A stretch of DNA of 64,000 nt, taken from contig CAZVRA010000001.1 of NCBI GenBank assembly GCA_964630055.1, positions 174,483 through 238,482 of the forward strand, written 5' to 3'. The translations under genes were made by a program, and so were the position numbers. The notes beneath the pieces are model-generated. The model saw nothing but the letters and a program-made list of their open reading frames with translations, was not told where the DNA came from and did not search any database. Below are positions 1,348 through 24,845 of this stretch, one piece after another. This stretch comes from an uncultured Candidatus Saccharibacteria bacterium. GTDB lineage: Bacteria > Patescibacteriota > Saccharimonadia > Saccharimonadales > CAZVRA01. The number at the start of each line of letters is the position of its first letter. The stretch's first letter is position 1.

Positions 1348-1839
1348 ATGAAGAAATTTACTCAAAAATATACCATTGTTCAGTTTTTCGATCCCATTGA
1401 CGAAGGGTACGAGTATTCATCAGACAGTTGGCCGCTTCACTCTACAATTGTTGATACATTTGCGATTGATTGGTCTGTTGATGAGATGGTTGCAAAACTA
1501 AGAGAGCAGTTAGGTAGTCACGCACCAGCTGAGTCGGTAGCGGAAGACGATAGATTCTTCGGTGAAAATGGACAAGTTCAAGTAGTTCTTCTTAACCGAT
1601 CAGAGAGCCTAGTTAACCTGCACCTCGATGTATTAACAGCGCTAGTGGACGGCGGGCTTACACTCAATGATCCACAATTTGCGCGTAATGGATTTCTGCC
1701 ACATGCAACCGTACAGAAGCACTCACGCCTCAATAAAGGTGACGAGGTTAAATTCACGGCTCTAAGTATCGTAGACATGTTCCCAGACGAGGATGCATAC
1801 AAGCGGAAGGTACTTAAGACCATCAAGATCGGCGTCTAG
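1348..1839 (+). CDS. 2H phosphoesterase superfamily protein (LigT / 2'-5' RNA ligase-like)
   Basis: Two H-x-T/S-x motifs (PLHSTIV and LPHATVQ) about 80 aa apart in a 163-aa protein, as is typical of the 2H fold. Confidence 0.4.
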   Translation: MKKFTQKYTIVQFFDPIDEGYEYSSDSWPLHSTIVDTFAIDWSVDEMVAKLREQLGSHAPAESVAEDDRFFGENGQVQVVLLNRSESLVNLHLDVLTALVDGGLTLNDPQFARNGFLPHATVQKHSRLNKGDEVKFTALSIVDMFPDEDAYKRKVLKTIKIGV

Positions 1840-1843
1840 AAAA

Positions 1844-2789
1844 CTATAGTTCTTTTTGACCTCGAGAAGTAAGCATTGTAGCAGTTGAACGATGCGCCGA
1901 GCATACTGACTGTTCTGGTGACACTCCTTCAGATAGCTTGATCGTAAACTCTGCACTGAACATATCCCCAGCCCCTAAGGGGTTAATGATCTCTCTATCA
2001 CTCAATGGTCTATCTGTTGGTATGTCTGTGGATTCTCCATCCTGAACTAGAGTGGCTCCATGCTTTGCTCTCGTAACAGCAACTGCCGTGTTTGGACATT
2101 GTTTACTCCAAGACACAGTCGTCTCTAGAGCGTCATCGATATCCTCATCTGAAATAATGACCGCATCAAACAAGTTCAGGATATTCGGATTAGTTAATGT
2201 TCCCCGTGTGATACGAGCATCGTCCATCTTCCTTAGCAATCCTTGTGGTATAAGTATCTTTTTACATTCCATACTTGTGTGACTCACCGTTTCACTGATA
2301 TATGCGTCCGAATAATTAGGAATGTCGGGTGCTACAATAAGAATGTCAGCACTCGCTATAAGTGCACTTATAGTCCTGTCTATATGAACGGGTAGGCTGT
2401 TCTTAGGGTTTGGACATAGGGTTTGGACAGTATTGCGTGCGATGGCCATTCTCGACGATATTTCTGTAGATAAGGGTACTATCGCCTCTAGGCCTAGTCG
2501 CCATCACTGTAAGGTCACGAATATACTCTAAAAAATCTGTGCCGTGTTCAGTGATGATACGAGTCTTCAACCTGTACTGACGGGCGCAGTACGTCGCAAT
2601 ATATATCGGAGGAGGTCCCATGAGCGATGCGGCACACCCTCTATTATGATTGTTATCGGTGTATACATGGCCAATAGTAACGACAGTAGGAGTGTGCGCT
2701 ACTTGCATCTGGTTACCAATGTCGTCCATCCTCCTCAATCTCTGCGATGACAACACGGTGATCTGAGACCTTGTCTTCAAGGCGAACAA
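1844..2789 (-). pseudogene. PfkB-family carbohydrate kinase split by a frameshift (ORFs 2403..2789 and 1844..2449 overlap by 47 nt in different frames)
   Basis: The downstream ORF carries the PfkB C-terminal signature (INPLGAGDMFSAEF, compare DTxGAGD). The upstream ORF has an N-terminal GG-type region (TIGHVYTDN...GCAAS). The two frames overlap at CPNP. Confidence 0.35.
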
Positions 2790-3414
2790 CTGACCTAAAA
2801 GAGAATTTTTTAGGTATAGCGATGTAATCTAGCGTGATATTATTTTTCGGAATTGATATACTCCAGTTCGTCTGAAGACAAGGCATAACTCTTCAGCAGC
2901 TAGCTTGAACATGCTGAAGTCACTCGTGATTACTGGCTAAACATCCTTCGCTATGCAAAGCTCGACCAGCTCCCCTGAGTGCTCGCTCGACTCTTGATCG
3001 ATGTTACCAAAGTGTATATTACATACACTCGTTATCTGGCCATCAATATCGATGACTGCGAATAGTGCAAAACATGGCTCACTGAAGTTAGTTCCTTGCG
3101 AAAGAAGGTATAATTCACTTGAGACTACAGGATGTCTGGATAGTAAGGCTAGTCCATGTGAGTGGCCTTTTGTTAAGGTTCGTCGTCTTGGGTGTCGATC
3201 TTTTCGAAACGAAGGCGTGTATATTATATAAGGAAAGCTACCTTCTCTTGTTAAGTAAGTGGCTTGCGAGATAGGTGACCTCGCCACATCAAATTGGACC
3301 TCCTGTAGCGCAACGACATCTGGCGACTGTCTATCAAGGAGAGGGCCGCTTTTTTACAAGCACCCTATTGCTCGTACCCCCCAAAAAAAATTTAGCGTCA
3401 TCAATTTGGTCATG

Positions 3415-4770
3415 CTAGATGATTATCTCCTTGTCTCCGTAGTACTGAATGGCCTTACTCCTAGTCTCGGGGGATGTGTTGGTGTTACGTGTAACAAGTT
3501 TTGTAAGGTATGCCCCTTTTTCGTTTTCATACAACCAATCAGCCAATGATGACAGTATAGAGTCGAATACGTAAGGGCAGCAGGCAACCGCCATTAATGC
3601 GCCCCATGAGCGATCGAGCGATTGTTCCATCAACTCGTTGGCGATCTTCCTCATACCCTCCCCGTCTACTCGGCCTGTAGATGCATACCACACACAAAAG
3701 GAAGCTATGGAATGAGGATATTCAGACTCTCCGCGAATCAGTTCGAGGCAGAGTTCTGGCAATTCTTCGGGCGTAGCTTGTAAGACTTTATTAAAAGATG
3801 TTGCAGCAGGATGTTCAGAGAGCACCTTAGTTAACATAGTGTCGACGGTATATTCAAGCTCTTGTCGTGCAGCTGAGTATGCTTCGATAAACTGTTTACT
3901 ATCGTTGATACCCCACGCCTGGAACTTGTCTTTACAGAATTCGTAAATAGCCTCTAGGCTCACTGGGGATACGTACCGGTTGCGCACATCACCGGTCATA
4001 TCATAGACAGATATTGCCGCGTTCTTGACCGTAAATAGTAAATTAGTTGCCTCAAATGGAGCGCGCAGGCCATATCGCTCCTTGGCGTCCATCATGACTT
4101 CTGGCAGTTCTGGGCTTTCACCTCTTATGGCGGGAAAATTACCAGTACTCATGCGTGAGATCATATTAAAGAAAATAGTATCTCTGCTAGACCCAGTACT
4201 GTATTTTAGATTTGGCCCCATGTTTGTCGTTTTATTCGGAAAGTCAAAATAACGATAGAAGAAATATTCACTAATATTGTTTGCAAGCTGATGGTCAGCC
4301 GTATTCGCCTCAAGAATCATCTCGCTTATATCGTCAGCCGGAACATGCCCGACCATTCGTCCATCAATGAAGCGATTGGCATCTACGAGCGAGTAGTTTA
4401 ATAAATTGTGCAGCCGCTCCTTATTAATATGCCCCACCTCAAACTTATCAACGCCGTCAACTCTAATATCACTCTCAACATAATTATCGTCGTTATATAC
4501 AACAAAGAGGTCGATATCAGAATTCGGCAACATCTCACGACGCCCAAGTGAGCCTCCGACCCATAGCTTCAAGCCAGGATACTGATTTGAAAGCTTATTG
4601 ATATACTCTTCGGCTGCGGTAGACATCTCTGCCATTGCATCGAATGTCGTGTAAGACGGATCTTTAAAAAGGCGCTCAGCAACATCTCGCCGTATCTCGC
4701 CAAAATCACCCGGTACTTCCTGAGCGTGTTCAATATCAAAAGTAGTCGACGGTTTTTCAATTCCATTCAT
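3415..4770 (-). CDS. Pol-beta superfamily nucleotidyltransferase with a large C-terminal helical domain (451 aa)
   Basis: GSLGRREMLPNSDIDLFVV fits the GS-x9-DxD nucleotidyltransferase motif. Confidence 0.5.
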   Translation of the reverse strand: MNGIEKPSTTFDIEHAQEVPGDFGEIRRDVAERLFKDPSYTTFDAMAEMSTAAEEYINKLSNQYPGLKLWVGGSLGRREMLPNSDIDLFVVYNDDNYVESDIRVDGVDKFEVGHINKERLHNLLNYSLVDANRFIDGRMVGHVPADDISEMILEANTADHQLANNISEYFFYRYFDFPNKTTNMGPNLKYSTGSSRDTIFFNMISRMSTGNFPAIRGESPELPEVMMDAKERYGLRAPFEATNLLFTVKNAAISVYDMTGDVRNRYVSPVSLEAIYEFCKDKFQAWGINDSKQFIEAYSAARQELEYTVDTMLTKVLSEHPAATSFNKVLQATPEELPELCLELIRGESEYPHSIASFCVWYASTGRVDGEGMRKIANELMEQSLDRSWGALMAVACCPYVFDSILSSLADWLYENEKGAYLTKLVTRNTNTSPETRSKAIQYYGDKEIII

Positions 4771-5479
4771 TACAGAGCCTCTCTATAATGTTTTCATAAT
4801 CCGTAAGAAGATGAGCCATCTCTTCACGCGTGTAGTTTTTGTCATATTTAGTAATTTCTATCAGTGCAGCTCGCGAACCCTTACTGAAAGGATAAAGTCG
4901 TTTTATGTCATCCTGAGCAGACCTATTAGTGATGTGCGAGATGTTCTCGGCTTTTTCTTCACCAAGATAGACAAGAACGTCCTTGAATAATTTGAGACTG
5001 TACTTCTTGAACCCAAGCGTATCGTTCGTCTGCTGGATGGCCATTACGCGAAGTCTCGATAGGTATTCTCGTGTCGTAATTAGCAATGATGGACGTATGT
5101 CCTCTAGCTTCAGCCGACTTACGATATTTTCATAGACATTTTCCCCGTACAGAACCTCTCCAGCGGCGAGTACGTACATAAAGAAAAGGCTCTTCGTACC
5201 ATCATGGAATATAATGTCGCCATTCTGATTGTATATGTCTTGCATATACATAATGCTTAGGTCGAGACTTGGATAATCCTCTAGGATTGTGTTTATTGCA
5301 ACTGTGAGCGCATACGAGGGTTTATCAAGTACAATCTGCAAGTCGCAGTCTGAACGACTATGTACATCTTGATTATTCCTAACAGAGCCAAAATAAATAA
5401 CTGATTTAAGGCTTGCTTTAACAAGCGCATTAGCCGTTAGGCGAGACGTGATCTCTTTAGGGAGTCCTCTATTTGCCAT
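4757..5479 (-). CDS. Nucleotidyltransferase-domain protein (ANT/LinB-like, 240 aa)
   Basis: FGSVRNNQDVHSRSDCDLQIVLD fits the GS...SDxD NTase motif. The gene overlaps the upstream gene by 14 nt, so the two are probably co-transcribed. Confidence 0.45.
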   Translation of the reverse strand: MANRGLPKEITSRLTANALVKASLKSVIYFGSVRNNQDVHSRSDCDLQIVLDKPSYALTVAINTILEDYPSLDLSIMYMQDIYNQNGDIIFHDGTKSLFFMYVLAAGEVLYGENVYENIVSRLKLEDIRPSLLITTREYLSRLRVMAIQQTNDTLGFKKYSLKLFKDVLVYLGEEKAENISHITNRSAQDDIKRLYPFSKGSRAALIEITKYDKNYTREEMAHLLTDYENIIERLCNEWN

Positions 5480-6094
5480 TTAATTAATCTTCTCCACGTT
5501 TTTTCCTACATACTGCAATGCCCAGCCATCCCTGCTACGAGTAAACAAACTTATTGATGTATTATCAGGGCGTGTTTGATATGTCTGTGGGTGTGACCAA
5601 AATTCGATTTTTGATGCAAGGCAGCGTATAGCACCTCCATGTGTGAAAGCAAACACGCGCCCACTGTCTGATATTGAGTTAGCCCATTCATACATTCGAT
5701 TACCTACATCGTTAAACGACTCGCCGCCAGGAGACCTAAATTCTTTTCCTAGCCTGTCAATCTCGGCAACTTGTTCATCTGTAAACACCTCGGTCGCTAC
5801 GCGTCCGACCCATTCACCGACATGCTGTTCCTGTAGACGATCGTCTTCAGTGATTGGAATATCGGTCATCATAGCATCGAGTGTATAGCGAGCTGTCTGG
5901 GCGGCTCGTACTGCTGGCGAAGCATACACTACATCAGGGAGTAGCTCGGCTCTTAGCAAGGCCGCGCCTAGTCTGCGTGACTGTTCAACGCCTCTTTCTG
6001 TCAGTGGAAAGTGATTACTACGGCCCGCAATGTAGTTATGACGAACATTATTTGCCGCCTCTCCATGTCGTATGAGATATAGCTCCGTACCCAT
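5480..6094 (-). CDS. Histidine phosphatase (phosphoglycerate mutase family)
   Basis: N-terminal LYLIRHGEAANN carries the RHG catalytic motif. A second His lies in the C-terminal FTHGGAIR segment. Confidence 0.6.
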   Translation of the reverse strand: MGTELYLIRHGEAANNVRHNYIAGRSNHFPLTERGVEQSRRLGAALLRAELLPDVVYASPAVRAAQTARYTLDAMMTDIPITEDDRLQEQHVGEWVGRVATEVFTDEQVAEIDRLGKEFRSPGGESFNDVGNRMYEWANSISDSGRVFAFTHGGAIRCLASKIEFWSHPQTYQTRPDNTSISLFTRSRDGWALQYVGKNVEKIN

Positions 6095-6099
6095 GGTTG

Positions 6100-7104
6100 T
6101 TAGATAAGTCGTCCTAAATTAGTAACGCCCAGCACCTTGCGATCCTCGAAGGACTGTCGAGCTAGCAGGGCAAGATGAAGTGCGATTCGAGCATCTTCAA
6201 TATCTGGTGCTGGTTGAGTGTTGTTCTTGATGGCAAGCGCGAATGCATCTATCTCTGCGGCATATGAGTCGCGAAATATGTCGATCACCCCGGGTGCTAG
6301 CTTATTACGAAGTTTGAGCGTTACGCCATCATCTTGTCCATGACCTATTTGTATAATTCCATCAGTTCCAATAATCTCAGCGGCTATATCGTATCCGTAT
6401 GAAGCGTAGCGACTCCATTCGGTGATCGCCATAGTATCATTGGTCATATATAAGGTAGTAGAGCAAGTATCTATATCGCTATACTCTCTTAGGCCAGTGT
6501 GAACTAGCGCTGCACCCGTTGCAGAGATTTCCAAAACCTCTTGACCTAGCAAGAACCTAGCCGCATCATAATCATGAATAGCTGCGTTCAGGAAAAGGCC
6601 ACCATTCTTACCTAAGCCCCAGTTTGCTGCGTTCGATGCGTTCGGGTCGCGGCCGTGGGCCTTAAAAAGAACAGGCTTGCCAATCTTACCGTTGACAATA
6701 GCTTCTTTTGCAGCTAGGTAGCGAGGATCCCAGCGACGCTGGAAGCCAATCTGAAACTTAACTCCAGCATCTACGACATATTGCAATGCGTCATCAGTTT
6801 CTCGCATCGTGAGACCAATCGGCTTCTCGGTAAATATATGCTTACCTGCTCTAGCTACTGATTTTATATGCTCAACATGAAGGTAAGTGTTTGATGCAAT
6901 CACAACACCGTCAATTGGTTGGTTCAGGAAATTGTCCAAGTTGTCGCAAGTAAGTGTATCGTATTGTTCTTTAACGCTATTTAACGATTCAGGATTCGTG
7001 TCGCACACGGCAAAAAGTTCAGAGTACTTTGAATTGTTGATATTCTTCGCGTGGATGGAGCCAAGACGACCGTATCCAATTAACCCAAGACGAACCCCAC
7101 TCAT
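6100..7104 (-). CDS. Gfo/Idh/MocA-family NAD(P)-dependent oxidoreductase
   Basis: N-terminal Rossmann segment VRLGLIGYGRLGS and the family EKP motif (IFTEKPIGL). Confidence 0.65.
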   Translation of the reverse strand: MSGVRLGLIGYGRLGSIHAKNINNSKYSELFAVCDTNPESLNSVKEQYDTLTCDNLDNFLNQPIDGVVIASNTYLHVEHIKSVARAGKHIFTEKPIGLTMRETDDALQYVVDAGVKFQIGFQRRWDPRYLAAKEAIVNGKIGKPVLFKAHGRDPNASNAANWGLGKNGGLFLNAAIHDYDAARFLLGQEVLEISATGAALVHTGLREYSDIDTCSTTLYMTNDTMAITEWSRYASYGYDIAAEIIGTDGIIQIGHGQDDGVTLKLRNKLAPGVIDIFRDSYAAEIDAFALAIKNNTQPAPDIEDARIALHLALLARQSFEDRKVLGVTNLGRLI

Positions 7105-7215
7105 CTACCCGACCTCCGTACCATTAACTTTAATACTTGTTTCTGTGGACTTGATATTTTCGCTATTATAGCATATCATTGTACTATATACAACCCCTGA
7201 CAGAGAAGGAAAACT

Positions 7216-8433
7216 ATGGCTGGACCAGGTGCATACAGCTTTGGTGACGAAGAGCGAAAAGAAGTAATAGATGTCCTCGAAAGCGGACACTTATCTCGTT
7301 ATGGCAGCCTCGACGATCCAAAGTTTAAGCATAAGGTCTACTCTTTAGAGCAAGAGTTTGCCAGCTATATTGGCGTGCAACATGCTATAGCAAATAGCTC
7401 GGGGACGGGCTCGCTGTTCATATCACTACTTGCACTTGGACTACAGGAGGGTGACGAGGTACTGGTTCCTGGATATACATTTGTAGCATCGATCGGATCA
7501 ATAATTTATTCTCGTGCTACACCCGTATTGGTTGAAGTAGATGAATCACTCACAATGGATCCGATCGATCTCGAGGAGAAGATTACAGAGAGGACAAAGG
7601 CGATTATGCCCGTCCATATGCTCGGTAATCCTTGCGATATGAATGCTATTATGCATATTGCCGAGAAACATAATCTCTTTGTGATCGAAGATGGTTGCCA
7701 GGCTGCTGGAGGATCATTCAAAGGGAAGAAGCTTGGCACCTTTGGTGATATAGGCGCATTTTCTCTGAATCAGCACAAGAATATCGCTGCTGGCAGTGGA
7801 GGTATAATCGTTACCAACGACAATGCTCTGTACGAGAAGGCATTTGCCATTAGCGACCAAGGTCACATGCCAAACAGAAGTGGCAAGGAAGTTGGTAGCA
7901 GGAGTATTGTAGGTCTCAATTTCCAAATGAATGAACTATCTGGTGCAGTTGCGTTAGCTCAAGTAAGAAAACTAGACGGCATGCTTCAGGTTTTGCGCGA
8001 CAAGAAGTGCCAACTGAAAAATCTCATCAAGGAAGCAGACATCCCCGGCGTTGCCTTTAGAAAAATTAACGATATCAATGGTGAATGTGCGACAATGCTG
8101 ACTATAATTTTCGACACCAAAGAAATGGCGGATAGAGTCAGTAAACAGCTTGGCAGCATGCCCTTGTCAGAATCTGGCTGGCATGTCTATAGCAACATGG
8201 AGCAAATTAGCGGGCATAAAACACCTACAGATGGCTGGTCTTCTCGAGGAAGGTTTGTCAATGCAGGCGATCTGCCTAAAACAGATGATATTCTAAGTCG
8301 TAGCATTAATATTAGCGTAGGTGTTGTTGACGGAGGACTTGGATCAGCATTTGGCATCAATATTCATTCAAGTGATGACGATATAAGAAGTGTAGCAAAC
8401 AGCTTTATAGCCGCATGTCGGTATTCGTTATAA
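7216..8433 (+). CDS. DegT/DnrJ/EryC1/StrS-family PLP-dependent sugar aminotransferase
   Basis: Family-typical GDIGAFSLNQHKNIAAGSGGIIVTND segment with the PLP lysine. The overall length is about 405 aa. Confidence 0.7.
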   Translation: MAGPGAYSFGDEERKEVIDVLESGHLSRYGSLDDPKFKHKVYSLEQEFASYIGVQHAIANSSGTGSLFISLLALGLQEGDEVLVPGYTFVASIGSIIYSRATPVLVEVDESLTMDPIDLEEKITERTKAIMPVHMLGNPCDMNAIMHIAEKHNLFVIEDGCQAAGGSFKGKKLGTFGDIGAFSLNQHKNIAAGSGGIIVTNDNALYEKAFAISDQGHMPNRSGKEVGSRSIVGLNFQMNELSGAVALAQVRKLDGMLQVLRDKKCQLKNLIKEADIPGVAFRKINDINGECATMLTIIFDTKEMADRVSKQLGSMPLSESGWHVYSNMEQISGHKTPTDGWSSRGRFVNAGDLPKTDDILSRSINISVGVVDGGLGSAFGINIHSSDDDIRSVANSFIAACRYSL

Positions 8434-8472: not shown

Positions 8473-10167
8473 ATGGTAAATTTAATACAAATTGACAAAC
8501 TCTATAAGAAGTATATAGATACCTACTCGGATGATGCAAATAAACTGAACTTGTTAGCGGAACAACTTCAACAAGCCGATGAAGATATAGTGTCTCGCAA
8601 GAACTTTGTCGGACACGTTACTGCCAGTGCTTTTGTTGTCAATAAATACACTCGTCAAGTACTGTTACTTCGTCATAAATCACTTGGTAAATTACTACAG
8701 CCAGGAGGACATATTGATGAGAGTGATGGGTCGCCCCTCGAAGCAGCGTTACGTGAGGTTGAAGAAGAAACTGGTTTAAAGAGTGAAGATTTGGAACTAA
8801 GAACCGTTTTCAAACACTTTCCTAACGTGCCTTGTCACATTGACACGCATTTTATCCCCGAGAATCACCGCAAGAATGAGCCGGGGCATTATCATCATGA
8901 CTTTCGTTACTTATTTGTGACAGAAAAATCCGATATAACAGTAGATATTAGAGAGTCGAGTGGTTTTCGGTGGATTGATTGGGGTGTTTTTGTTGATGAC
9001 CCACATTTTACTACTGTTGTTGATAGGATTGAAGGATTGCTTGAGTCAAATCCTCGTGAATTTTTCAGATCAATAGTCGATAGAAGTGGTAAAAATATAT
9101 CTGTGATAGCCGTATCTCACATTATACCAAGCTCAGAGAACTACATCCTTGCTTTACAGGAAAATTTTAACCTCATAGGTATTATCCCGAAGCCAAATTC
9201 AATAAATAAAAAAACTTTATCTTTATTAAAAGATCATGATGTAGCTATACTAGATCAATTTACGCGTCAAAACATAGCTGATAACTCCGGGGAGCTAACA
9301 GACATGCTTATAAGTTACAATAATATATGCATGATAGATATTGGGGGGTATTTTAGTGAAAGTATTAGAGTGATCAAGAAGAGACTGGGCAAGAGGCTCA
9401 TTGGGATTGTGGAAGACACCGAGAATGGACATCAAAAGTATGAAAAGAGTATGACAGACGGTATTCGTATTATATCTGTTGCACGTAGCCCCCTGAAAAG
9501 CTTTGAAGACCAACTCGTTGGTAATGGAGTTGCTCATGCTGCTGAGACTGTCTTACGTAATCTAAACATCCTAATTAATTATAGAACCTGCGGTATCATA
9601 GGTTATGGTAAAATCGGAAGGGGCATATTTCAATACCTACAACAGCGTGGTATACGTCCTTATATATGCGAAATCAATCCGATGCGTGCCGTGCAAGCAT
9701 CTTGTGACGGTGCGATAGTGGTATCAATTCATCGCCTTTTGAGAAATAGTGATGTTGTTTTTTGCGCTACAGGATCTAGAGCCATCAATATCCTTAAATT
9801 TCGTGACTTGAAAAGGGGTGCATTCTTGGCATCAGTAACATCCTCGGATGATGAATTTGATTTACGATTTATTGATAGCGAATATGTTAATGAAAAGATA
9901 ACAAGTGATATCACAAAATATTCAAAACTTGGTCATCATTTTCATATCATTAATGACGGAAATGCTATAAATTTCTTGTATTCTGCGGCCGTTGACCAAT
10001 ATATTTATTTAGTTCAAGGTGAATTAGTCGCTAGTATAGTAAGTTTATTCCAGGATAAAAATAAAAAACCAAGGATAAAAAGTATCCTAACTAATCCTAT
10101 AGAAGTTCAGTATCATATAGCAGATAACTGGTTTAGTCATATCATCAAAGGAGACAAGGCATCTTAA
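8473..10167 (+). CDS. Fusion protein: N-terminal Nudix hydrolase plus C-terminal S-adenosylhomocysteine-hydrolase-like (NAD-binding) domain
   Basis: Nudix box GGHIDESDGSPLEAALREVEEETGL. The C-terminal GIIGYGKIGRGIFQYLQQRGIRPYICEINPMRAVQASCDGAIVV aligns with the AdoHcyase NAD domain (GYGDVGKG...ITEIDPINALQA). The mid-region IVEDTENGHQKYEK / SVARSPLKSFEDQLVGNGVAHAAE resembles AdoHcyase VSEETTTGVHRL / [21 protein letters not shown]. Confidence 0.5.
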   Translation: MVNLIQIDKLYKKYIDTYSDDANKLNLLAEQLQQADEDIVSRKNFVGHVTASAFVVNKYTRQVLLLRHKSLGKLLQPGGHIDESDGSPLEAALREVEEETGLKSEDLELRTVFKHFPNVPCHIDTHFIPENHRKNEPGHYHHDFRYLFVTEKSDITVDIRESSGFRWIDWGVFVDDPHFTTVVDRIEGLLESNPREFFRSIVDRSGKNISVIAVSHIIPSSENYILALQENFNLIGIIPKPNSINKKTLSLLKDHDVAILDQFTRQNIADNSGELTDMLISYNNICMIDIGGYFSESIRVIKKRLGKRLIGIVEDTENGHQKYEKSMTDGIRIISVARSPLKSFEDQLVGNGVAHAAETVLRNLNILINYRTCGIIGYGKIGRGIFQYLQQRGIRPYICEINPMRAVQASCDGAIVVSIHRLLRNSDVVFCATGSRAINILKFRDLKRGAFLASVTSSDDEFDLRFIDSEYVNEKITSDITKYSKLGHHFHIINDGNAINFLYSAAVDQYIYLVQGELVASIVSLFQDKNKKPRIKSILTNPIEVQYHIADNWFSHIIKGDKAS

Positions 10168-10248: not shown

Positions 10249-11328
10249 ATGAGTATAGATCAACACTACCGACCAACTCCCGAAAAAGAATTAGGTAAAT
10301 TTGACCAAGACCCACAGCTTCTAGGCCTTATAGACCAAGAGAGTCTTGAAGTATCTATGCAGGATCCGTCATCAATTCTTAATGAGCGCTCAGGTTTTCC
10401 TGCTATAGTCCCCCTGAAGTACGCTACTGAAGCCAACCAGGTTTTTTTGCAAGATGGCTATGAACCATTTTTTATCGACTTCTACAACTCTGGGCTTAGC
10501 GAAGACGCAGAAGGTTTGAAGGGGGTTTTGAGCAAAATTACTCCTAAATCATCAATTGCGATCGAACTTAGGCATGAAGACACCGGGAAAGTGGAAGAGA
10601 TAAAGCAGGCCATGATTAGTATGGATCGACGTGCTGTGGTGAGCCCGGGTGTTTACGATGCAGAGTACGGCACTTTGGCGTCGGTTACTCACTTTTTTAG
10701 CGATTTAAACTTTGAAGATAGGCCAGGTCCGGATTTCGAGAGCTTGGATCAATCTTATGAGCATTTAGGATCGTCTGGCGAATGGCAGAAAATGTTCGGT
10801 GACAGTGTTAAATATGTGAGCGGAGATAAGATTGATCCAGATCTGCTGGAAAAACTGTGGTATACATACGACAAAACATTCGATAAACTTACACAAAACC
10901 ATCCTTCGGCACAGAAGCAGCCTCGAGAATATTTTGATCAGCAGATCTTACTACCCGAGTCCAAGATCATATATGTAGAGAAGGAAGGACGAGTAGTTAG
11001 CGAGCTCTTTTTAATAGATGGCCTAGAAGTTTGCCCATGGTTAAATAAAGACTACTTCGACAAGCTAAACCCTAGAGGCAGGACAGTTTTTAGCCCAGGA
11101 ATATCTACAACCTTAGACATGCAAGGTATGAACTTTAGCGAACTTACCATTCGAGCCATGTCTGAACTTGGCCGCAGAGTACCAGGCTTGACGGGCTTTG
11201 CAACGCAATGCACTAATCGCTCAGAGAATTACGTACCCGTTTTAGCCAACAAATTCACTGAAGGAAGTGCCAACTTGCAACTTAAAGAGACGGCTTGCTA
11301 TGACTATCCAGTGCTACTTATTGACTGA
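10249..11328 (+). CDS. Hypothetical protein (359 aa)
   Basis: Long ORF with no recognisable motif. Confidence 0.3.
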   Translation: MSIDQHYRPTPEKELGKFDQDPQLLGLIDQESLEVSMQDPSSILNERSGFPAIVPLKYATEANQVFLQDGYEPFFIDFYNSGLSEDAEGLKGVLSKITPKSSIAIELRHEDTGKVEEIKQAMISMDRRAVVSPGVYDAEYGTLASVTHFFSDLNFEDRPGPDFESLDQSYEHLGSSGEWQKMFGDSVKYVSGDKIDPDLLEKLWYTYDKTFDKLTQNHPSAQKQPREYFDQQILLPESKIIYVEKEGRVVSELFLIDGLEVCPWLNKDYFDKLNPRGRTVFSPGISTTLDMQGMNFSELTIRAMSELGRRVPGLTGFATQCTNRSENYVPVLANKFTEGSANLQLKETACYDYPVLLID

Positions 11329-12262
11329 GATTAACAGTATACATTTTATGAATTTCTACTGGTTTCAATAGTTCTTTGTGCCTGCGTATACCAGGAATAT
11401 TCGCGTCACGCTCAAAGTTTATATAGTCAATTCCTTCTTTCTCCATCTCTTTAGAGAGCAAATGCCAAAAATAGTCACTTGCATTCTTAAACTTGTATCC
11501 TGATCGAGCATGGTGAATATTTATATACTTTTTACCACCGTTATTTAAGTATGAAAATATATAAATATATTGAGGTTCATCATCAATCTTTCCTATTAAT
11601 GCACTAACGTTATACTCTTCTGAGAAAGCTACAATGTTAGCAAGTACGTTACCTTCCGCCCGGTCTGGGTCATTACCAAATATAAAAGTACTATCCCACA
11701 GATGATGCGCGTTAATGATTTCTACTTTACCTCTATGTGAATGTATGTCAATCTTATCCAGTCTTATGTCTGTTTCAGGGTTGTCGCGTTTAAACAGATT
11801 TATCTCACGTCTTATTCTGCGGTAGCTCGGGTCCGCAAGAGACGAATGTTCTTTAACGCTATAGATATAGTCACATAAACCCAAGTCATATTTTACTTGA
11901 GCATTATCCCCTAACATGGTTTGGATTTTATCCAAATGAGGCTCTGATATAACAAGCTGAGTTCTGGGTACGATTAGTAAATTTCTTACAAACAATAAGG
12001 CTTCAGGTGTTAATTCGCCTATGTTGCCAATAGTTGTTAGGTTGACAACATCGGTGTCACTACCGAGTATATCTCTGAAGTATACTAAAAGTAAATTTTT
12101 TGAAAGGGAACAAACTTTAGCTGGCTCCAAATAAGATAGCCATGTATTTAGTTCTGCAAAAGAATAGTCTGCACTAGGATGGGGATGCTTAGAATAATAA
12201 TGCATATACGCGTCATAATCATTCTTAGAAATATCTTTAAAATATGGATATTTTGGCAACAT
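11318..12262 (-). CDS. Hypothetical protein (314 aa)
   Basis: Long ORF that converges on the previous gene. No motif recognised. Confidence 0.3.
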   Translation of the reverse strand: MLPKYPYFKDISKNDYDAYMHYYSKHPHPSADYSFAELNTWLSYLEPAKVCSLSKNLLLVYFRDILGSDTDVVNLTTIGNIGELTPEALLFVRNLLIVPRTQLVISEPHLDKIQTMLGDNAQVKYDLGLCDYIYSVKEHSSLADPSYRRIRREINLFKRDNPETDIRLDKIDIHSHRGKVEIINAHHLWDSTFIFGNDPDRAEGNVLANIVAFSEEYNVSALIGKIDDEPQYIYIFSYLNNGGKKYINIHHARSGYKFKNASDYFWHLLSKEMEKEGIDYINFERDANIPGIRRHKELLKPVEIHKMYTVNLSQ

Positions 12263-14501: not shown

Positions 14502-15185
14502 TTAGTCCTGAGACCGCATTTTTGGGGTGCAGATCAGAATGGCCAAATCATTATGCTCGGTAACTCTGAGATCAAGGTAGCGACTTATACGATCCGCCTC
14601 ACTGGACACATCAATGGCGGTATTGATTTTATTTTTGGCGACTCTATCTACTGTGGGGGTGACAATAATGAGCTTACCAGCGGGCTTTAGTAATTCTGCT
14701 ACGTCTTGTAAAAATGCGTCTTTATTTTTTACAAAAGCATATACCAGCCTGCATATGACCAGGTCATATTTTGCTGTTTTTGGCATATCTTCTGCACTGC
14801 AAACCCAAAATTCTGCTCCCGTCACTGGGGTTGACCGAGCTAAACTTATTGCTTCTATGCTCCAATCGATCCCGTCACTGCGAATTCCTTTAGATGCAAG
14901 TTTTTTGACTAATTGACCATCACCGCAGCCAATATCTAGAGCACAGCAAGTTTTCTTGCATCCAGGCTGCACATCTAGCGCCGTAAGGTATATCTGTAAT
15001 TCCTCGTTCGACACCGGCCTAAAGCGGCCACCTTTGGCGAAAAAGTCATCCCATTTTTCTTTCTTTATCACAAATACCATTGTATAGTAAAAATACATAA
15101 ATAAGGAGGTGCGCATGTCAAATATTGAGCGGCTAGGAGGCCTATCTAACAGATAGATTTGACCAAAAACTGAATAATTCGCCAC
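14502..15185 (-). CDS. Class I SAM-dependent methyltransferase (true start probably internal, near 15080)
   Basis: Motif I ALDIGCGDGQLV and post-motif LLKPAGKLII. Confidence 0.5.
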   Translation of the reverse strand: MANYSVFGQIYLLDRPPSRSIFDMRTSLFMYFYYTMVFVIKKEKWDDFFAKGGRFRPVSNEELQIYLTALDVQPGCKKTCCALDIGCGDGQLVKKLASKGIRSDGIDWSIEAISLARSTPVTGAEFWVCSAEDMPKTAKYDLVICRLVYAFVKNKDAFLQDVAELLKPAGKLIIVTPTVDRVAKNKINTAIDVSSEADRISRYLDLRVTEHNDLAILICTPKMRSQD

Positions 15186-15354: not shown

Positions 15355-16179
15355 TTACTGTTTTTCCAATATTGTCTCCCACTGCGCCCAGTTGGTGCCA
15401 TTGGCTCTGGGTATAAATTCTTCACGCAGGGGTAGAATTACCCTATATTTACCTCTTGTTAGTGCACAGATTTCTTCGGCCGAATAGAAGTGTATACGCT
15501 GACCCTTTTTTGCCCCTGTGGAGTAGCAAATGTCAAAACCACCTTCCGGATTGGTCCGTTTGTCTTGGAACTCTTCGACCACTTGCGTGTGAATCGAATT
15601 TACCCTTAACGCAAAAATACCACCGGGCCTTAATAGATTAAAAGCATGATCAAATAGTTGCATGGGCGATTGACTGCCAATATGTTGGAAAAGCTGCAAA
15701 GAAATTAAAAAATCATACTGGTTACTTGCTGAATAAGCCAAAAAATCACCTTGCCATGCCTTTAAGCCCGAACATTTTGCGTGCAACTGTTGGATCGCCT
15801 CGGCCGATATGTCGATTGCCTCAATATTTAACCCTGTAGCCAGCAGGGGCAAGAGGTTACGGCCATTACCGCATCCAGGGTAAAAGCCGAGACCTTTGTG
15901 AAGCTTTTTGCTACGTAGGGTGTTGACAATATCACTAACAAAAGCCACCGGATCCTCCTGCTCGTACTTACCGCTCCGATAGGCCTTGTCCCAGTTGGAC
16001 CTAGCTATGTCGTAGTCGTAGCCATGGCCGTATTCGGTCATCTTTTGATCTGCAGAGCCTTGTCTCGAAGCTTGTTTCATATCTGTAATAATTGTAGCAC
16101 TTTCATTAAAACTCGACCCAGTAGCCATAAGCAAAATAATCTTGACAAAAGCACACTTTTGATGTATTATTGCACCCAT
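15355..16179 (-). CDS. Class I SAM-dependent methyltransferase (TehB-like)
   Basis: Motif I GFYPGCGNGRNL and LLRPGGIFAL. Confidence 0.5.
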   Translation of the reverse strand: MGAIIHQKCAFVKIILLMATGSSFNESATIITDMKQASRQGSADQKMTEYGHGYDYDIARSNWDKAYRSGKYEQEDPVAFVSDIVNTLRSKKLHKGLGFYPGCGNGRNLLPLLATGLNIEAIDISAEAIQQLHAKCSGLKAWQGDFLAYSASNQYDFLISLQLFQHIGSQSPMQLFDHAFNLLRPGGIFALRVNSIHTQVVEEFQDKRTNPEGGFDICYSTGAKKGQRIHFYSAEEICALTRGKYRVILPLREEFIPRANGTNWAQWETILEKQ

Positions 16180-21755: not shown

Positions 21756-23255
21756 TTGTCATTGCGCTGCCAAGCACGCATAATTAAAGGTATGGGCAAG
21801 GTTAAAAGAGGTGTGGCCTGGTTATTGGGGCGCTGTAAACACAGTGTTTGGCTGTGGCTGAGCGGCGTTTTGGTGGGCCTGTGCATGGTGTTGTACCGGA
21901 GCGAAGGGCTACTATTTTGGTGTTTGTGGCCCTGTTTTTGGTATTTGCTGCGGGTGTCGCGGAGTTGGCCCAAAAATCGTCATCGCTTGCCGGCCGATTT
22001 GTACGTTCTTGGACTTATCATTTGCTTTTTTGGTAATTTCTTTATTTTACAGGTTTCGGCTGGCAATTGGACCATGAATCTAAGCAGTTGGCTAGCAGTA
22101 TGGGCGCCCCGGCTGTCGCTGTTGCTGATTTGCTTGTTTTGCGCGCTTAGTTTTTGGCTGATAGGTTGGTTGTTGCAACATATTAACAACTCATGGCACA
22201 GAATTGCTAGCTTAGTTTTTTTGTGGCCGTTGGCCGAGCTGCTACGTAGTTATTTGTTTGCCATCATGGCTTATGCGCCGCATGGCAGCCTAAGTCCAAA
22301 TTTTAATTGGGGTGCTTTGGCAGTTCCGGCCGCTGGCACTGATCTGGTTTATGCTTCGACCTTGGTTGGATTTTTTGGTTTGTCGGCAGTGGTCGTAGCT
22401 GTTAACCTGGGACTTTGGATTTTTTTGCAATCAGCTGTTGGCTGGGTGTGGCACAGGTTTAGGCCAGCTGTAAAAAATGAATCAACACCTTTAGGTCCTG
22501 TATCCCGCGTTTACATATTGAAGCTGGGCATGGTACTTTTGGCCACCAGTGGTCTGCTGACGCTTGGCGGACGGAGCCTTTTCCGCCATAGATTTCCGGC
22601 CAAAACCAACGACCTAAAAATTGTGGTGGTGCCGCTAAACGAGGACCAGGCTCTAAACGACTGGCCAGAATCGGACTGGCCGCCTGTGGGCACTGATCTG
22701 TTGGTGACGCCGGAGTATTCGGAGCTAATGTCCAATCCTCGCTACAAAGAAATTTTGAGCCGTTTGTCCGAAAACGGGGTTGCCATAACCACTATTCGAG
22801 CTGGCCGTTCGCCGGGTGGTACTAACCAGCTGGTATTTTTGAACCGCCAGGGCGAGGTGGTCGAGCGACAAGACAAAACCTTTTTAATACCCACCGGCGA
22901 GACATTACCGTATAGCTTGCAGATTAGTTTTAGAGCGCTGCACAAATCTCATACGAGCCAGAGTTTTCGCTACATCCAGCAAGTGACGGCTGGCAAGCAG
23001 CCCGAGCGGCCCTACGATACCGGCAAGTTTAAGGTGGGCGCTTTGGCCTGCAGTGGTGTTAGTGCACTGAGCGAATATAGTCGTTTAACAAAAGAAGGCG
23101 CTGATGTTTTGGTCAACAGCGCCTCTTTGTCCTTTTTGCAGCCCGACAGTTTTTACCATGTTTATGCCGGCAACATGGCCCGCTTTCAGGCGGTGTCGAA
23201 CAGCCGGCCACTAGCTCAGGCCAGCCGCAGCGGCCAGAGCTATGTTATCTACTAG
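21756..23255 (+). CDS. lnt: Apolipoprotein N-acyltransferase-like protein (CN-hydrolase domain, multi-pass N-terminus); true start may be the internal Met near 21792
   Basis: N-terminal TM helices. LLVTPE, DKTFLIPTGE and GALACSG correspond to the Lnt Glu/Lys/Cys triad motifs (LVIWPE, KxxLVPFGE, ICYE). Confidence 0.45.
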   Translation: MSLRCQARIIKGMGKVKRGVAWLLGRCKHSVWLWLSGVLVGLCMVLYRSEGLLFWCLWPCFWYLLRVSRSWPKNRHRLPADLYVLGLIICFFGNFFILQVSAGNWTMNLSSWLAVWAPRLSLLLICLFCALSFWLIGWLLQHINNSWHRIASLVFLWPLAELLRSYLFAIMAYAPHGSLSPNFNWGALAVPAAGTDLVYASTLVGFFGLSAVVVAVNLGLWIFLQSAVGWVWHRFRPAVKNESTPLGPVSRVYILKLGMVLLATSGLLTLGGRSLFRHRFPAKTNDLKIVVVPLNEDQALNDWPESDWPPVGTDLLVTPEYSELMSNPRYKEILSRLSENGVAITTIRAGRSPGGTNQLVFLNRQGEVVERQDKTFLIPTGETLPYSLQISFRALHKSHTSQSFRYIQQVTAGKQPERPYDTGKFKVGALACSGVSALSEYSRLTKEGADVLVNSASLSFLQPDSFYHVYAGNMARFQAVSNSRPLAQASRSGQSYVIY

Positions 23256-23261
23256 GCTGTT

Positions 23262-24845
23262 TTATCTAATTTGTTTGCCGTCCCATTTTGCATGGTAATT
23301 GGTTGCCTCCGCTTCGAAAAATCCTCTTTTAACGTACATAGATTGATTTGTGAAATAAGTATTGCACTCACTTAATGTTGTGTTGTGGTATATGGTTGAT
23401 CTATTGCCACCACCTCCTAGTGCGTTATAGAGACCTGCATCTTGTTTCCAGCTTATCACGCAATCAGCTCTTTTTTCTGGCGCCTTGACTACGCCGTTAT
23501 TAATCTCACCAGTTGACACGGTAGTGCTTGTTCGGCCACTAACACTATCGGCATTTAATGCGCCTGGAGCGCCGTTCTTGGCTTTAACACGTCGCTCATT
23601 TGCTGCACTGGTTCTTTCTTTCTCCGCTGCTTGAGCAGGGGCGCTGTTATTATCGGCATTTTGGAAGCCTGGAGGGCCGTTATTTTTAGCGTTGATTCGG
23701 CGTAGGGCAGCTCCGCCGTCGTTGGCTGGAGGCGCAATCGTGGTTTTAGGCGCGACCGTGGGATTTACTGGCTTAGCCGTGGCAGAACTAGCTGCTTTTG
23801 CGGCTGCTGCGGGGTCGTTTGGGTTAGCCTTAACGGCTGCTTGAGCGGCAATTATTTTAGCATTTTCGTTAGCTTTAGCCTGTCTTTCGGCCACACAGGT
23901 CGGTCGGTTCATGATTTCTGGTGCGGAACAGTCACGCATGTAGGCGTTCCATCTATCGTTACAGGCTTGGTCAAACTGTGATGGCTGGGCTTTTTGGTAA
24001 TCTGTTAGGTTGTTAGGGCAGGTGGGACCAACAGGCATGCCGTTAGCGATGGATTTATTGAGGTTTGCCCACTGGGCGGTGCATCTTGAGGCGTTCTCTA
24101 ATAAAGAGCAGTCATAGAGATCAGGCTTGGGCTGTTCGTTTGGAGGGGTCTTGACCTGGTAGTTAGGCGGGTATGCCCAAAAAGCTATACCAGGCATGAC
24201 GGCATCTATTCTCCAGCCATCAGGCTCGGTGGCGCCTTCGGCCAACCTTTGATCAATCCAGGTTTTATCTACAGAATAGATAGACTTAGACTTTGCGCCG
24301 CCCGAAGTTATTCGATAAACTGGTACAGTACCGGGGCGGTGGCCATCGGTCCAGGCAAAGAAGGCAACTCCTTCTTGCTGTATGTCGCCATTACCGTTAT
24401 ATTTGGCTTCTTTTTGGCTTTTTTGGTCGGCGGTTGCCCATTCATGCCAAGTAAGCTTGGCATTGTACAGTCTGTAAACCGGCACTGCGCCATCTAACGG
24501 AGTGGTCGGTGCTTTAAAAATAGCGCCATATGCTTCACCCCATCCCTGCTCGCCAAGCGCCTTGTACTCGCCATCAACACTCAGAACTGAATCATAGGCT
24601 TGGTAGACGAGGTTGACATGGCAAATATTGGCTCCATCTTCCACTTGACAGTAATTTGGCTCTGCTCCGGCAAAAAACATAAAGTAGGCACCAATGCCGG
24701 CAACCAGGGCAGCGGCAATTAGTATAACTTTTTTGCTAAATTTGGGACGCGATGACAAGAGTGTCCCAATACCGCCACTACGCACAGCTGGGCTGGACGA
24801 CACCTTGCGGACGGGCTTATTTTTTATTGGGCGAGATGAAGGCAT
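23262..24845 (-). CDS. Membrane-anchored extracytoplasmic protein of unknown function (527 aa)
   Basis: N-terminal basic region plus a TM helix. Repeated VPVYR(L/I) motifs. Ala/Pro-rich linker. Confidence 0.4.
   Translation of the reverse strand: MPSSRPIKNKPVRKVSSSPAVRSGGIGTLLSSRPKFSKKVILIAAALVAGIGAYFMFFAGAEPNYCQVEDGANICHVNLVYQAYDSVLSVDGEYKALGEQGWGEAYGAIFKAPTTPLDGAVPVYRLYNAKLTWHEWATADQKSQKEAKYNGNGDIQQEGVAFFAWTDGHRPGTVPVYRITSGGAKSKSIYSVDKTWIDQRLAEGATEPDGWRIDAVMPGIAFWAYPPNYQVKTPPNEQPKPDLYDCSLLENASRCTAQWANLNKSIANGMPVGPTCPNNLTDYQKAQPSQFDQACNDRWNAYMRDCSAPEIMNRPTCVAERQAKANENAKIIAAQAAVKANPNDPAAAAKAASSATAKPVNPTVAPKTTIAPPANDGGAALRRINAKNNGPPGFQNADNNSAPAQAAEKERTSAANERRVKAKNGAPGALNADSVSGRTSTTVSTGEINNGVVKAPEKRADCVISWKQDAGLYNALGGGGNRSTIYHNTTLSECNTYFTNQSMYVKRGFFEAEATNYHAKWDGKQIR

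Follow-up and report, generated by a model that had tools for sequence, protein, structure and literature searches.

A rare, mobile gene block shared by Saccharibacteria and Actinobacteria joins a candidate hydroxyl-to-amine module to two Pol-beta nucleotidyltransferases

This report concerns a trio of adjacent genes, encoding a histidine phosphatase, a Gfo/Idh/MocA dehydrogenase and a DegT-type aminotransferase, at positions 5480–8433 of a 64,000-nucleotide stretch of DNA (hereafter the window, to which all coordinates refer unless a locus is named) from contig CAZVRA010000001.1 of an uncultured Candidatus Saccharibacteria bacterium (assembly GCA_964630055.1, positions 174,483–238,482). The trio is part of a rare, mobile block of 7–10 genes, whose four-gene core is conserved from Saccharibacteria to Actinobacteria. 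We tentatively favour the view that the three enzymes convert a hydroxyl to an amine within a dedicated small-molecule pathway, itself horizontally mobile, that leads to a nucleotide-linked or nucleotide-activated amino-cyclitol or amino-sugar.

Conservation, mobility and range of the block

Relatives were gathered in three ways, namely by look-ups of aminotransferase homologues, by a genome scan with the Nudix fusion protein described below, and by a metagenome scan with the larger (451 residues) of two Pol-beta nucleotidyltransferases encoded beside the trio; each locus was then scored by phmmer for every block member. This yielded 26 non-redundant lineages of the 451-residue enzyme, 17 of them with enough flanking sequence for counting. 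The second, 240-residue nucleotidyltransferase, the dehydrogenase and the aminotransferase accompany the 451-residue enzyme in all 17 flanked lineages, and the histidine phosphatase is present in 16. Conservation of the block had been set beforehand as a check that might refute a preliminary description of this DNA, in which the trio was pointed out; once the check was run, the block proved to be conserved in relatives. The nucleotidyltransferases, the Nudix fusion and a PfkB kinase do go with the trio, as that description had it.

Loci of low GC content (0.35–0.49), in which the named relatives are metagenome-assembled genomes (MAGs) of Saccharibacteria, add a Nudix domain fused to an S-adenosylhomocysteine hydrolase (SAHH)-like enzyme and a 2H phosphoesterase; some also have a PfkB kinase, an exonuclease/endonuclease/phosphatase (EEP) protein, a P-loop kinase or a 2-hydroxyacid dehydrogenase, all of them optional. 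The window represents the minimal Saccharibacteria-type set, with seven intact genes (a five-gene core made up of the four core genes and that of the phosphatase, the Nudix–SAHH fusion and the 2H enzyme). Exactly these seven are found in another order in locus L089, and L012, L107 and L109 are also rearranged, membership being kept in L089, L012 and L107; the retention of the Nudix fusion and the 2H enzyme through rearrangement is good evidence that both belong to the block. The flanking genes vary from genome to genome (resolvase, Mrr and relaxase genes among them), those of the window match no other copy, and in L107 an IS66 element is inserted within the block itself; the varying flanks indicate that the block is mobile. 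It is also dispensable, decaying in some lineages, as judged from the broken PfkB and EEP genes of the window and from locus L110 (4233–13121 of contig BNJV01000408.1), a 10-gene copy in which every member is fragmented.

Homologues of the 451-residue enzyme that are ~40% identical occur in Blastococcus capsensis, Rhodococcus sp. and high-GC metagenomic contigs. These high-GC copies add to the core a 2OG-Fe(II) oxygenase, a PhyH-type oxygenase and a TPR protein, and have no Nudix, 2H, PfkB or EEP gene, whereas Actinomadura has the dehydrogenase–aminotransferase pair only, flanked by genes for a PAP2 phosphatase and a DMT transporter. The block is thus modular, its parts being an amination module (a phosphatase with the dehydrogenase and the aminotransferase), the nucleotidyltransferase pair and lineage-specific additions. 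Viral contigs, when scanned, contained just four relatives of the Nudix fusion and none of the 451-residue enzyme, and a plasmid search likewise gave no relative of the latter. No glycosyltransferase, flippase, polymerase or polysaccharide gene was found in any copy, and nothing ties the block to central or polysaccharide pathways; the preliminary description had rightly set the genes apart from central metabolism, and they are equally not a cell-wall or UDP-sugar locus. Literature searches on Saccharibacteria, anti-phage, CHAT/TPR-S and Nudix/SAHH-like topics returned no description of the block.

Organization of the amination trio

The trio genes were called from the open reading frame (ORF) listing together with Pfam and NCBIfam scans. 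They comprise a branch 1 histidine phosphatase (5480–6094, minus strand; His_Phos_1, E = 9.4e-39), a dehydrogenase of the inositol-2-dehydrogenase clade, predicted to be NAD-dependent (6100–7104, minus strand; three domains at ~1e-23 each), and a KdnA-like aminotransferase of the DegT/DnrJ/EryC1/StrS family, dependent on pyridoxal phosphate (PLP; 7216–8433, plus strand; PF01041, E = 8.7e-78). All three are complete ORFs with their catalytic motifs kept, such that the gene content first proposed for 5480–8433 is confirmed, including the assignment of the phosphatase to the histidine rather than the HAD type. More broadly, the enzymes of the block look catalytically competent from their sequences, an Asp-to-Asn change in the dehydrogenase (see below) excepted. 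The phosphatase has its RHG motif at residues 9–11 and THGG at 151; it lies under every NCBIfam cut-off, and the top model, for a CobC-type alpha-ribazole phosphatase, gives 94.5 bits where 163 are required.

The minus-strand genes are packed as one operon: 5 nt separate the dehydrogenase stop from the phosphatase start, the phosphatase stop codon abuts the start of the 240-residue nucleotidyltransferase gene (4757–5479), and this in turn overlaps the 451-residue nucleotidyltransferase gene (3415–4770) by 14 nt, with an EEP remnant and the PfkB kinase gene further downstream. The aminotransferase gene diverges from this operon across a 111-bp intergenic region (7105–7215), and the gene for the Nudix–SAHH fusion starts 39 nt after it; the 2H phosphoesterase gene (1348–1839, plus strand) is convergent with that for PfkB. 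Within the intergenic region there is one sigma-70-like site (TTGATA-17-TATCAT, 7151–7179), and a GAAGG ribosome-binding site precedes the aminotransferase ATG at 7216; scans for promoters and terminators gave no more hits than did shuffled controls, and the 7151–7179 site is therefore weak evidence. The only Rfam match in the window at the gathering threshold is a single tRNA, and no riboswitch was found close to the block. The trio had been described as part of an AT-rich segment, which its GC content does not bear out (0.453, against 0.459 for the window); the only AT-rich genes are the Nudix fusion (0.371) and the ORF at 11318–12262 (0.352).

The dehydrogenase and its affinity with inositol dehydrogenases

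The dehydrogenase aligns with almost the whole of TIGR04380, the model for inositol 2-dehydrogenase (289.1 bits, E = 3.5e-86, positions 2–328 of 330), and its Actinomadura orthologue scores 296 bits. The models for sugar 3-dehydrogenases score much lower (113 bits for UDP-GlcNAc 3-dehydrogenase and 28–52 bits for glycoside 3-dehydrogenases). Its top six matches in the PDB are all inositol dehydrogenases, including 3ezy, 4hkt, 4mkx and 4n54, and the best solved relatives, namely TM0414 from Thermotoga maritima, IdhA from S. meliloti and two inositol dehydrogenases from L. casei, are colinear with it. The cofactor motifs are present (GYGRLG at 10–15, the NAD+ acidic residue Asp35, and EKP at 93–95), as are those for the substrate (GFQRRWD at 120–126 and YGYD at 236–239). 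The motifs GFxRR[YF]D and YGY mark the myo- and D-chiro-inositol dehydrogenases, in which they hold substrate contacts (PMC9603128). The catalytic triad, Lys97-Asp172-His176 in B. subtilis numbering, is incomplete: the lysine (Lys94) and the histidine (His177) are kept, whereas the aspartate is replaced by Asn173, the local sequence being FLNAAIHDYD where inositol dehydrogenases have FLDxxIHDxD. The Asn173 codon occupies 6586–6588 on the minus strand. Neither iolB, iolC, iolD nor iolE was found in the block of the window or in any related locus. We conclude that, as judged by its motifs and model scores, this is an inositol-dehydrogenase-like enzyme rather than a certified IolG, the real substrate of which may be a modified cyclitol.

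These affinities bear directly on the suggestion, made in the preliminary description, that the trio is kanosamine-like, following the logic of NtdC/NtdA/NtdB with a histidine phosphatase replacing the HAD enzyme. A pathway of this kind, or of the similar RifL/RifK/RifM kind, would produce a 3-amino-3-deoxy-hexose from glucose-6-phosphate or a UDP-hexose. The three-step logic itself stands: oxidation, transamination and dephosphorylation by Gfo-family, DegT-family and phosphatase proteins are common to NtdABC, KabABC, RifLKM and the block, and Pol-beta or other nucleotidyltransferases could in principle build a nucleotide-sugar. At the level of the sequences, the analogy is not supported. NtdC shares a superfamily with the window dehydrogenase, but the latter matches inositol dehydrogenases best; the phosphatase is of the His_Phos_1 type and the HAD phosphatase is missing; NtdA is distant from the aminotransferase (see below); and the genomic partners are entirely different. 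Judged by its sequences, kanosamine synthesis is the least supported reading, and we consider it quite improbable.

The aminotransferase

The aminotransferase matches PF01041 with 262.5 bits (cut-off 19.8), and its PLP lysine, Lys188 within SLNQHK, aligns with that of KdnA, a position at which the dehydratases have histidine. KdnA (PDB code: 5k8b) is the nearest solved relative, colinear over 365 residues (254.8 bits, E = 1.3e-74, residues 4–368), and is followed by perosamine synthases, an entry for glutamine:scyllo-inosose transaminase, and BtrR. The enzymes of kanosamine-type pathways are detectable at much lower scores, with 126 bits for 3-amino-5-hydroxybenzoate synthase (RifK) and 118.6 bits for NtdA (4k2b), the latter over residues 43–253 of the query and 105–310 of NtdA; moreover, the extra N-terminal region of NtdA is missing from the window enzyme. 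KdnA itself partners a metal-dependent alcohol oxidase, KdnB, and acts on the terminal C8 of Kdo; neither a KdnB-type partner nor a Kdo gene was seen in the block, where the partner is instead a Gfo-family dehydrogenase. The aminotransferases paired with this dehydrogenase in Actinomadura, Blastococcus and Rhodococcus are ~60% identical to that of the window. In a Clostridia MAG the aminotransferase stands alone, and plasmid matches are at most 41% identical, in unrelated polysaccharide or non-ribosomal peptide synthetase contexts.

The nucleotidyltransferase pair

The 451-residue enzyme (3415–4770, minus strand; NTP_transf_2, E = 7.6e-8) is GlnE- and ANT-like (ANT, aminoglycoside nucleotidyltransferase), with a long helical domain, and the 240-residue enzyme (4757–5479, minus strand; Polbeta, E = 2e-4) is of MNT/ANT size. 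Both conform to the Pol-beta motif G[GS]-x(9-13)-D-x-[DE], which is invariant among the respective orthologues: in the larger enzyme it is provided by Gly73-Ser74 and Asp85-Ile-Asp87, within GGSLGRREMLPNSDIDL (residues 72–88), and in the smaller by Gly31-Ser32 and Asp44-Cys-Asp46 (GS-x10-DCD, 31–46), for which all five scanned orthologues gave a Polbeta match. The 240-residue gene is in all cases immediately upstream of the 451-residue gene. Both are infrequent, the smaller enzyme forming 84 representative clusters among 1.84 billion and the larger having only 76 homologues among 5.8 billion proteins; the 451-residue enzyme is the rarest and most diagnostic gene product of the block.

An AlphaFold2 model of the 451-residue enzyme (pLDDT 91) gave as its top Foldseek match the N-domain of GlnE (1v4a; E = 2.9e-5, TM-scores 0.43/0.45), followed by ANT(4'), HalB, DrrA, AadA and AAD(9). 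Of these, GlnE, DrrA, ANT(4'), AadA and AAD(9) place AMP on the hydroxyls of proteins or aminoglycosides. The enzyme shares with the GlnE/DrrA/ANT group the combination of a Pol-beta motif, here in the GlnD/GlnE form (GSLGRxEMxPxSDIDL), and a large helical domain after it, but the structural likeness is limited (TM-scores 0.2–0.45) and is not matched by any significant sequence similarity: PDB profile searches with both nucleotidyltransferases returned nothing under E = 0.008.

In four lineages the phosphatase and the 240-residue nucleotidyltransferase are fused into a single protein of ~430–450 residues (L004, 7481–8830; L012, 9565–10854; L102, 8632–9999; L118, 1110–2459; and P0317), which suggests that the two act together or in sequence. 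In locus L113 (3460–6632), the nucleotidyltransferase pair and an EEP gene adjoin a DUF2268 protease and a YcaO–nitroreductase fusion, i.e. machinery for azoline/azole-type ribosomally synthesized and post-translationally modified peptides; the dehydrogenase and aminotransferase were not found within this 7.4-kb contig, and the pair may serve other pathways too.

The resemblance of the pair to the resistance enzymes ANT(4'), AadA and AAD(9) raises the alternative that the block runs in the opposite sense, with the same reactions deaminating an amino-cyclitol or aminoglycoside acquired from the host or the environment, as in rhizopine (moc) catabolism, and the ANT-like enzymes conferring resistance. 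The dehydrogenase and aminotransferase reactions are reversible, the Gfo/Idh/MocA family owes part of its name to a rhizopine-catabolism protein, and the Actinobacteria, which are the hosts of Saccharibacteria, are a major source of aminoglycosides. However, the block lacks a transporter, a regulator and the iolC, iolD, iolE and iolB genes; resistance nucleotidyltransferases have no need of a co-conserved dehydrogenase, aminotransferase, phosphatase, Nudix–SAHH fusion and 2H enzyme; the 2-oxoglutarate-dependent oxygenases of the high-GC copies are typical tailoring enzymes; and the DMT-family transporter beside the Actinomadura pair is read as a putative exporter. Breakdown or detoxification is, in our judgement, very improbable.

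The Nudix–SAHH fusion, the 2H phosphoesterase and optional members

The gene at 8473–10167 (plus strand) encodes a Nudix domain (E = 2.4e-13) fused to a complete SAHH-like NAD enzyme (AdoHcyase_NAD, E = 8e-18). The Nudix box, at residues 78–102, is canonical save for a one-residue insertion. By alignment, the SAHH-like part retains His216, Asp289, EDTENG (314–319), Lys342, Asp346 and GYGKIGRG, and thereby the equivalents of His55, Asp131, Glu156, Thr157, Lys186 and Asp190 of SAHH; both the NAD site and the residues for binding and oxidizing the ribose 3'-OH thus appear to be retained. It lacks His301 and His353, its HFD motif has become SSDDE, and it falls short of the curated SAHH model (best NCBIfam score 91 bits against a cut-off of 275). 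In the AlphaFold2 model (pLDDT 83.5), the C-terminal 370 residues were recognized by Foldseek as a full SAHH fold (target-normalized TM-score 0.75). The fusion therefore differs from SAHH in losing His301 and His353 and in carrying a Nudix domain, while keeping the fold, the NAD site and the ribose residues. There is a precedent for such redeployment in AgmF of the angustmycin pathway, an SAHH homologue that acts as a self-sufficient NAD-dependent dehydratase in the making of a nucleoside natural product (PMC8599513).

The Nudix–SAHH family has 828 homologues spread over many phyla. In Streptomyces (~39 genomes, L041–L088), the Nudix and SAHH-like proteins are encoded by separate, overlapping genes within a recurring but different cluster, which in L085 (2258–13813) encodes a carbamoyltransferase, a GT-like protein, a methyltransferase, an APH protein, a His_Phos_1 protein, a second APH protein, the SAHH-like and Nudix proteins, and a P450. 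This looks like an uncharacterized gene cluster of the nucleoside or aminoglycoside type, with the same Nudix and SAHH-like pair at its centre, and, with its histidine phosphatase and two APH-type kinases, it implies that the pairing of Nudix–SAHH with phosphatase and kinases recurs independently.

The 2H (2'-5' RNA ligase/LigT-like) phosphoesterase (1348–1839, plus strand; Pfam 2_5_RNA_ligase2, E = 1.9e-7) keeps both HxT motifs (His31-Ser-Thr and His119-Ala-Thr), and its gene is present in most low-GC lineages, the rearranged L089 included. The PfkB-family kinase gene (1844–2789, minus strand), an optional member, carries one frameshift near 2418: tblastn with the intact orthologue from L001 matched it as two colinear segments, one in frame −1 and one in frame −2, with 58–59% identity. 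It is intact in L001, L004, L007 and L010 and absent from L089, L103 and L109. Likewise optional is EEP, a pseudogene in the window (about 2734–3401, minus strand) in which tblastn with the intact L001 orthologue revealed two in-frame stops and two frameshifts, spread over three frames; a remnant ORF (2937–3287) matches Exo_endo_phos_PGAP2IP. The window lacks the P-loop kinase (AAA_17/18), the gene for which, in many low-GC relatives, separates that of the aminotransferase from that of the Nudix fusion. The 2H gene and the EEP pseudogene were missed by the preliminary description; the neighbours that it did list, i.e. the two nucleotidyltransferases, the Nudix–AdoHcyase-like fusion, the frameshifted PfkB and two methyltransferases (14502–15185 and 15355–16179), are all present, but the methyltransferases have no counterpart in any related copy and drop out as module members. 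A histidine kinase, also considered for membership, was rejected on the same grounds.

Two further genes may be lineage-specific additions. The first (10249–11328, plus strand) encodes a 359-residue protein with no match in Pfam, NCBIfam or PADLOC, and with a 43%-identical homologue in L113; the second (11318–12262, minus strand) encodes a 314-residue LPG_synthase_C/DUF2156-like protein of the tandem GNAT type (Pfam, E = 4.8e-4), with a full-length but weak match to PDB entry 2hqy (E = 0.03). A homologue of the latter in L107 (14273–15199) adjoins the 2H gene and is above the LPG_synthase_C cut-off, at 67 bits. In L113, homologues of the 359- and 314-residue proteins (3–587 and 6729–7427) lie near the nucleotidyltransferase pair, that of the 314-residue protein adjoining the 240-residue nucleotidyltransferase gene. 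This recurrence of DUF2156-like proteins hints at a possible aminoacyl-tRNA-dependent acylation step in some lineages.

The richness of the block in nucleotide enzymes brings into play the main rival to a cyclitol pathway, namely a route to a 3'-amino-3'-deoxy nucleotide or nucleoside. Puromycin, A201A, cystocin and 3'-amino-3'-deoxyguanosine (ADG; AdgB–E) owe their aminonucleoside core to enzymes of four types, represented by Pur10 (Gfo-family dehydrogenase), Pur4 (aminotransferase), Pur7 (Nudix) and Pur3 (monophosphatase) (PMC9239236, PMC11641026). By analogy, the Gfo-family enzyme would oxidize the 3'-OH of a nucleoside triphosphate and the DegT-family enzyme would aminate it, with the product then trimmed to the monophosphate by the Nudix domain and dephosphorylated to the nucleoside by the phosphatase; alternatively, the nucleotidyltransferases would use the 3'-amino-nucleoside triphosphate as a chain-terminating donor. 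All four enzyme types (dehydrogenase, aminotransferase, Nudix and phosphatase) are present in the low-GC block, which is a compact operon like the Pur and Adg operons, the one from Photorhabdus being itself a low-GC island. Additionally, the SAHH-like domain keeps the ribose 3'-OH residues, the block includes the 2H phosphoesterase, a P-loop kinase that resembles nucleotide kinases and a PfkB protein for which a nucleoside kinase is the best model, and the putative DUF2156-type aminoacyl transferase found beside three low-GC copies would allow for an aminoacyl-aminonucleoside. On the other hand, the dehydrogenase is IolG-like, lying deep in the inositol-dehydrogenase clade with its inositol-contact motifs kept, rather than RifL/Pur10-like, although Pur10, compared here by description, has been published only as RifL-like over its N-terminus. 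The phosphatase is from a different superfamily and is not of the inositol monophosphatase (IMPase) type; the Nudix domain is fused to the SAHH-like enzyme and its gene is missing from the high-GC, actinobacterial core copies; there is neither an MFS exporter nor any other exporter, and no acetyltransferase-type self-resistance gene; and the two nucleotidyltransferases, which are obligatory in the block, are absent from the Pur and Adg operons. On balance, we regard an aminonucleoside of this type as distinctly unlikely.

A proposed pathway to an amino-polyol

Under the amino-cyclitol or amino-sugar interpretation that we prefer, the histidine phosphatase would first free a phosphorylated cyclitol or sugar precursor, the simplest being an inositol phosphate, whereupon the inositol-dehydrogenase-like enzyme would oxidize one ring hydroxyl with NAD+, and the KdnA-like aminotransferase would convert the resulting ketone to an amine, giving an amino-polyol of the inosamine type. 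The GlnE/ANT-like nucleotidyltransferase pair could then put a nucleoside monophosphate on the amino-polyol or on an intermediate and, in Saccharibacteria, the Nudix–SAHH-like enzyme and the 2H phosphoesterase could trim or remodel the nucleotide half; the kinases, where present, would provide phosphorylated precursors. The end product would be a specialized metabolite (a weapon, a signal or a means of defence) outside central metabolism and the cell wall.

A cyclitol is favoured as the substrate by the position of the dehydrogenase in the inositol-dehydrogenase clade with its motifs kept, and by the pairing, in Actinomadura, of the same two enzymes with a non-homologous phosphatase (PAP2) and a transporter. 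There is also experimental precedent, in that inositol dehydrogenase (IolG) and one aminotransferase suffice to convert myo-inositol to scyllo-inosamine, both in vitro and in plants (PMC6668481). Moreover, KdnA uses a free sugar, not a nucleotide-sugar. From these protein affinities, an inosamine-type cyclitol would fit better than glucose-6-phosphate.

Comparison with the established aminocyclitol routes reveals both likeness and difference. The scyllo-inosamine route (IolG/IdhA and MosB) resembles the block in that an inositol-type Gfo/Idh/MocA dehydrogenase stands beside a PLP aminotransferase, with a phosphatase, and the streptomycin, spectinomycin and hygromycin A pathways begin with the same phosphatase, dehydrogenase and aminotransferase steps. 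The block departs from these routes in having asparagine for the catalytic aspartate, a histidine phosphatase in place of one of the IMPase type, and an aminotransferase that, among solved proteins, is closest to KdnA; it includes neither glycosyltransferases nor an amidinotransferase, and its fixed partners (the Pol-beta pair, with Nudix–SAHH and 2H in Saccharibacteria) occur in no known aminocyclitol pathway.

Several observations weigh against the proposed pathway. The dehydrogenase misses the equivalog cut-off of TIGR04380 (289 against 355 bits), and Asn173 is shared by every orthologue with a readable motif, including that of the stand-alone Actinomadura pair. Paralogues from C. glutamicum with isoleucine or glutamate at the position of the triad aspartate gave no growth on the inositols tested (PMC9603128), which, taken together with the Asp-to-Asn change, means that inositol itself may not be the substrate. 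Neither an inositol-phosphate synthase nor an inositol transporter was seen in the block. Many of the partners are nucleoside or nucleotide enzymes (SAHH-like, Nudix, 2H, P-loop kinase and PfkB), for which ribose would fit equally. The Foldseek similarity of the 451-residue enzyme is modest, and its acceptor could be a protein. In 80 genomes, the Nudix–SAHH fusion has no cross-taxon conserved neighbours outside Saccharibacteria, and it is consequently unusable for defining the block. Finally, the sequences would be compatible with either direction of the pathway, synthesis or breakdown.

Possible biological roles

A further proposal concerns biological role, and overlaps both with the amino-cyclitol or amino-sugar pathway and with the aminonucleoside alternative: the block may be part of a conflict or anti-phage system that makes a nucleotide-derived toxin or second messenger, acting in Actinobacteria with a CHAT protease and TPR-S proteins. 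In all four well-flanked high-GC loci (Actinomadura L008, Blastococcus L091, Rhodococcus L092 and metagenomic L114), genes for a CHAT-domain protein and for homologous TPR-S/TPR_10 proteins lie within a few kilobases, in varying order. RES, OLD-TOPRIM, AbiEi and TCAD9 genes are also found near high-GC loci, Mrr, resolvase and relaxase genes flank low-GC copies, the 451-residue enzyme weakly resembles the Hailong enzyme HalB, and a DISARM-like island is situated 20 kb away in the window. Proximity to defence islands is, however, weak evidence when taken alone, and the CHAT and TPR-S genes are missing from the Saccharibacteria-type copies. Moreover, none of the ten block proteins scanned against PADLOC-DB 2.0 had a significant match: there was nothing for the dehydrogenase, the aminotransferase, the phosphatase, the Nudix fusion or the 2H enzyme, and the matches were marginal both for the nucleotidyltransferase cores (E = 3e-4 or worse) and for the P-loop kinase, which hit a dCTPase model. 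Neither the block nor the 451-residue enzyme was present in the viral contigs or plasmids scanned. A role of this kind therefore seems to us improbable.

In a more elaborate version of the amino-cyclitol or amino-sugar pathway, the product would belong to a class of metabolites not known before. Here, a covalent bond would link the amino-cyclitol or amino-sugar to a nucleotide or a nucleoside, with the SAHH-like enzyme exchanging the 5'-substituent of the nucleoside via transient 3'-oxidation, and with aminoacyl-tRNA-dependent transfer of an amino acid by a DUF2156-type enzyme being added in some lineages; the block would have been acquired from, or be shared with, Actinobacteria, in which its copies would be wired to CHAT and TPR-S proteins, and the product would serve as a weapon, a signal for host manipulation or an anti-phage molecule. 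Taken as a whole, this scheme is unlikely.

Other features of the window

Elsewhere in the window, a serine recombinase gene (28393–30126, minus strand) adjoins a tRNA-Glu gene (28359–28433), and is followed by DISARM-like genes for DrmE_C (33723–36311), NERD/PhoH (36308–38029), a 1121-residue helicase (38026–41391) and an MZB/DUF1998-type protein (41364–43211); the region as a whole (28359–43211) looks like an integrated defence island. A 791-residue TrwB/DUF87 protein (type IV coupling protein/HerA-like; 45149–47524) suggests that remnants of a conjugative element are also present. Strong local excursions in AT-skew (−0.18 to −0.28, and +0.23) were seen at 22000–24000, 32000–33000 and 50000–51000.

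Implications

Saccharibacteria have genomes of ~1 Mb and almost no biosynthetic capacity. In genomes so small, with so little biosynthesis, the retention of a moving block of 7–10 genes and 9–10 kb, held in common with Actinobacteria, the very phylum on which they live, is unexpected. Modules that convert a hydroxyl to an amine are well known; here, a familiar module of this type is joined to partners without precedent in aminocyclitol, aminosugar or aminonucleoside pathways, and the combination of this dehydrogenase subfamily with two rare nucleotidyltransferases, the Nudix–SAHH enzyme and the 2H phosphoesterase is undescribed in the literature searched. Nor did that literature yield any characterization, across bacteria, of the Nudix–SAHH-like enzyme. 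The product of the block is probably new; if it were plain inosamine or kanosamine, the finding would be an ordinary one. Identification of the product could bring to light a new natural product linked to a nucleotide, assign a first function to the Nudix–SAHH family, with its 828 homologues and its conserved Streptomyces cluster, and give a chemical handle on the conflict between epibiont and host, or between phage and host.

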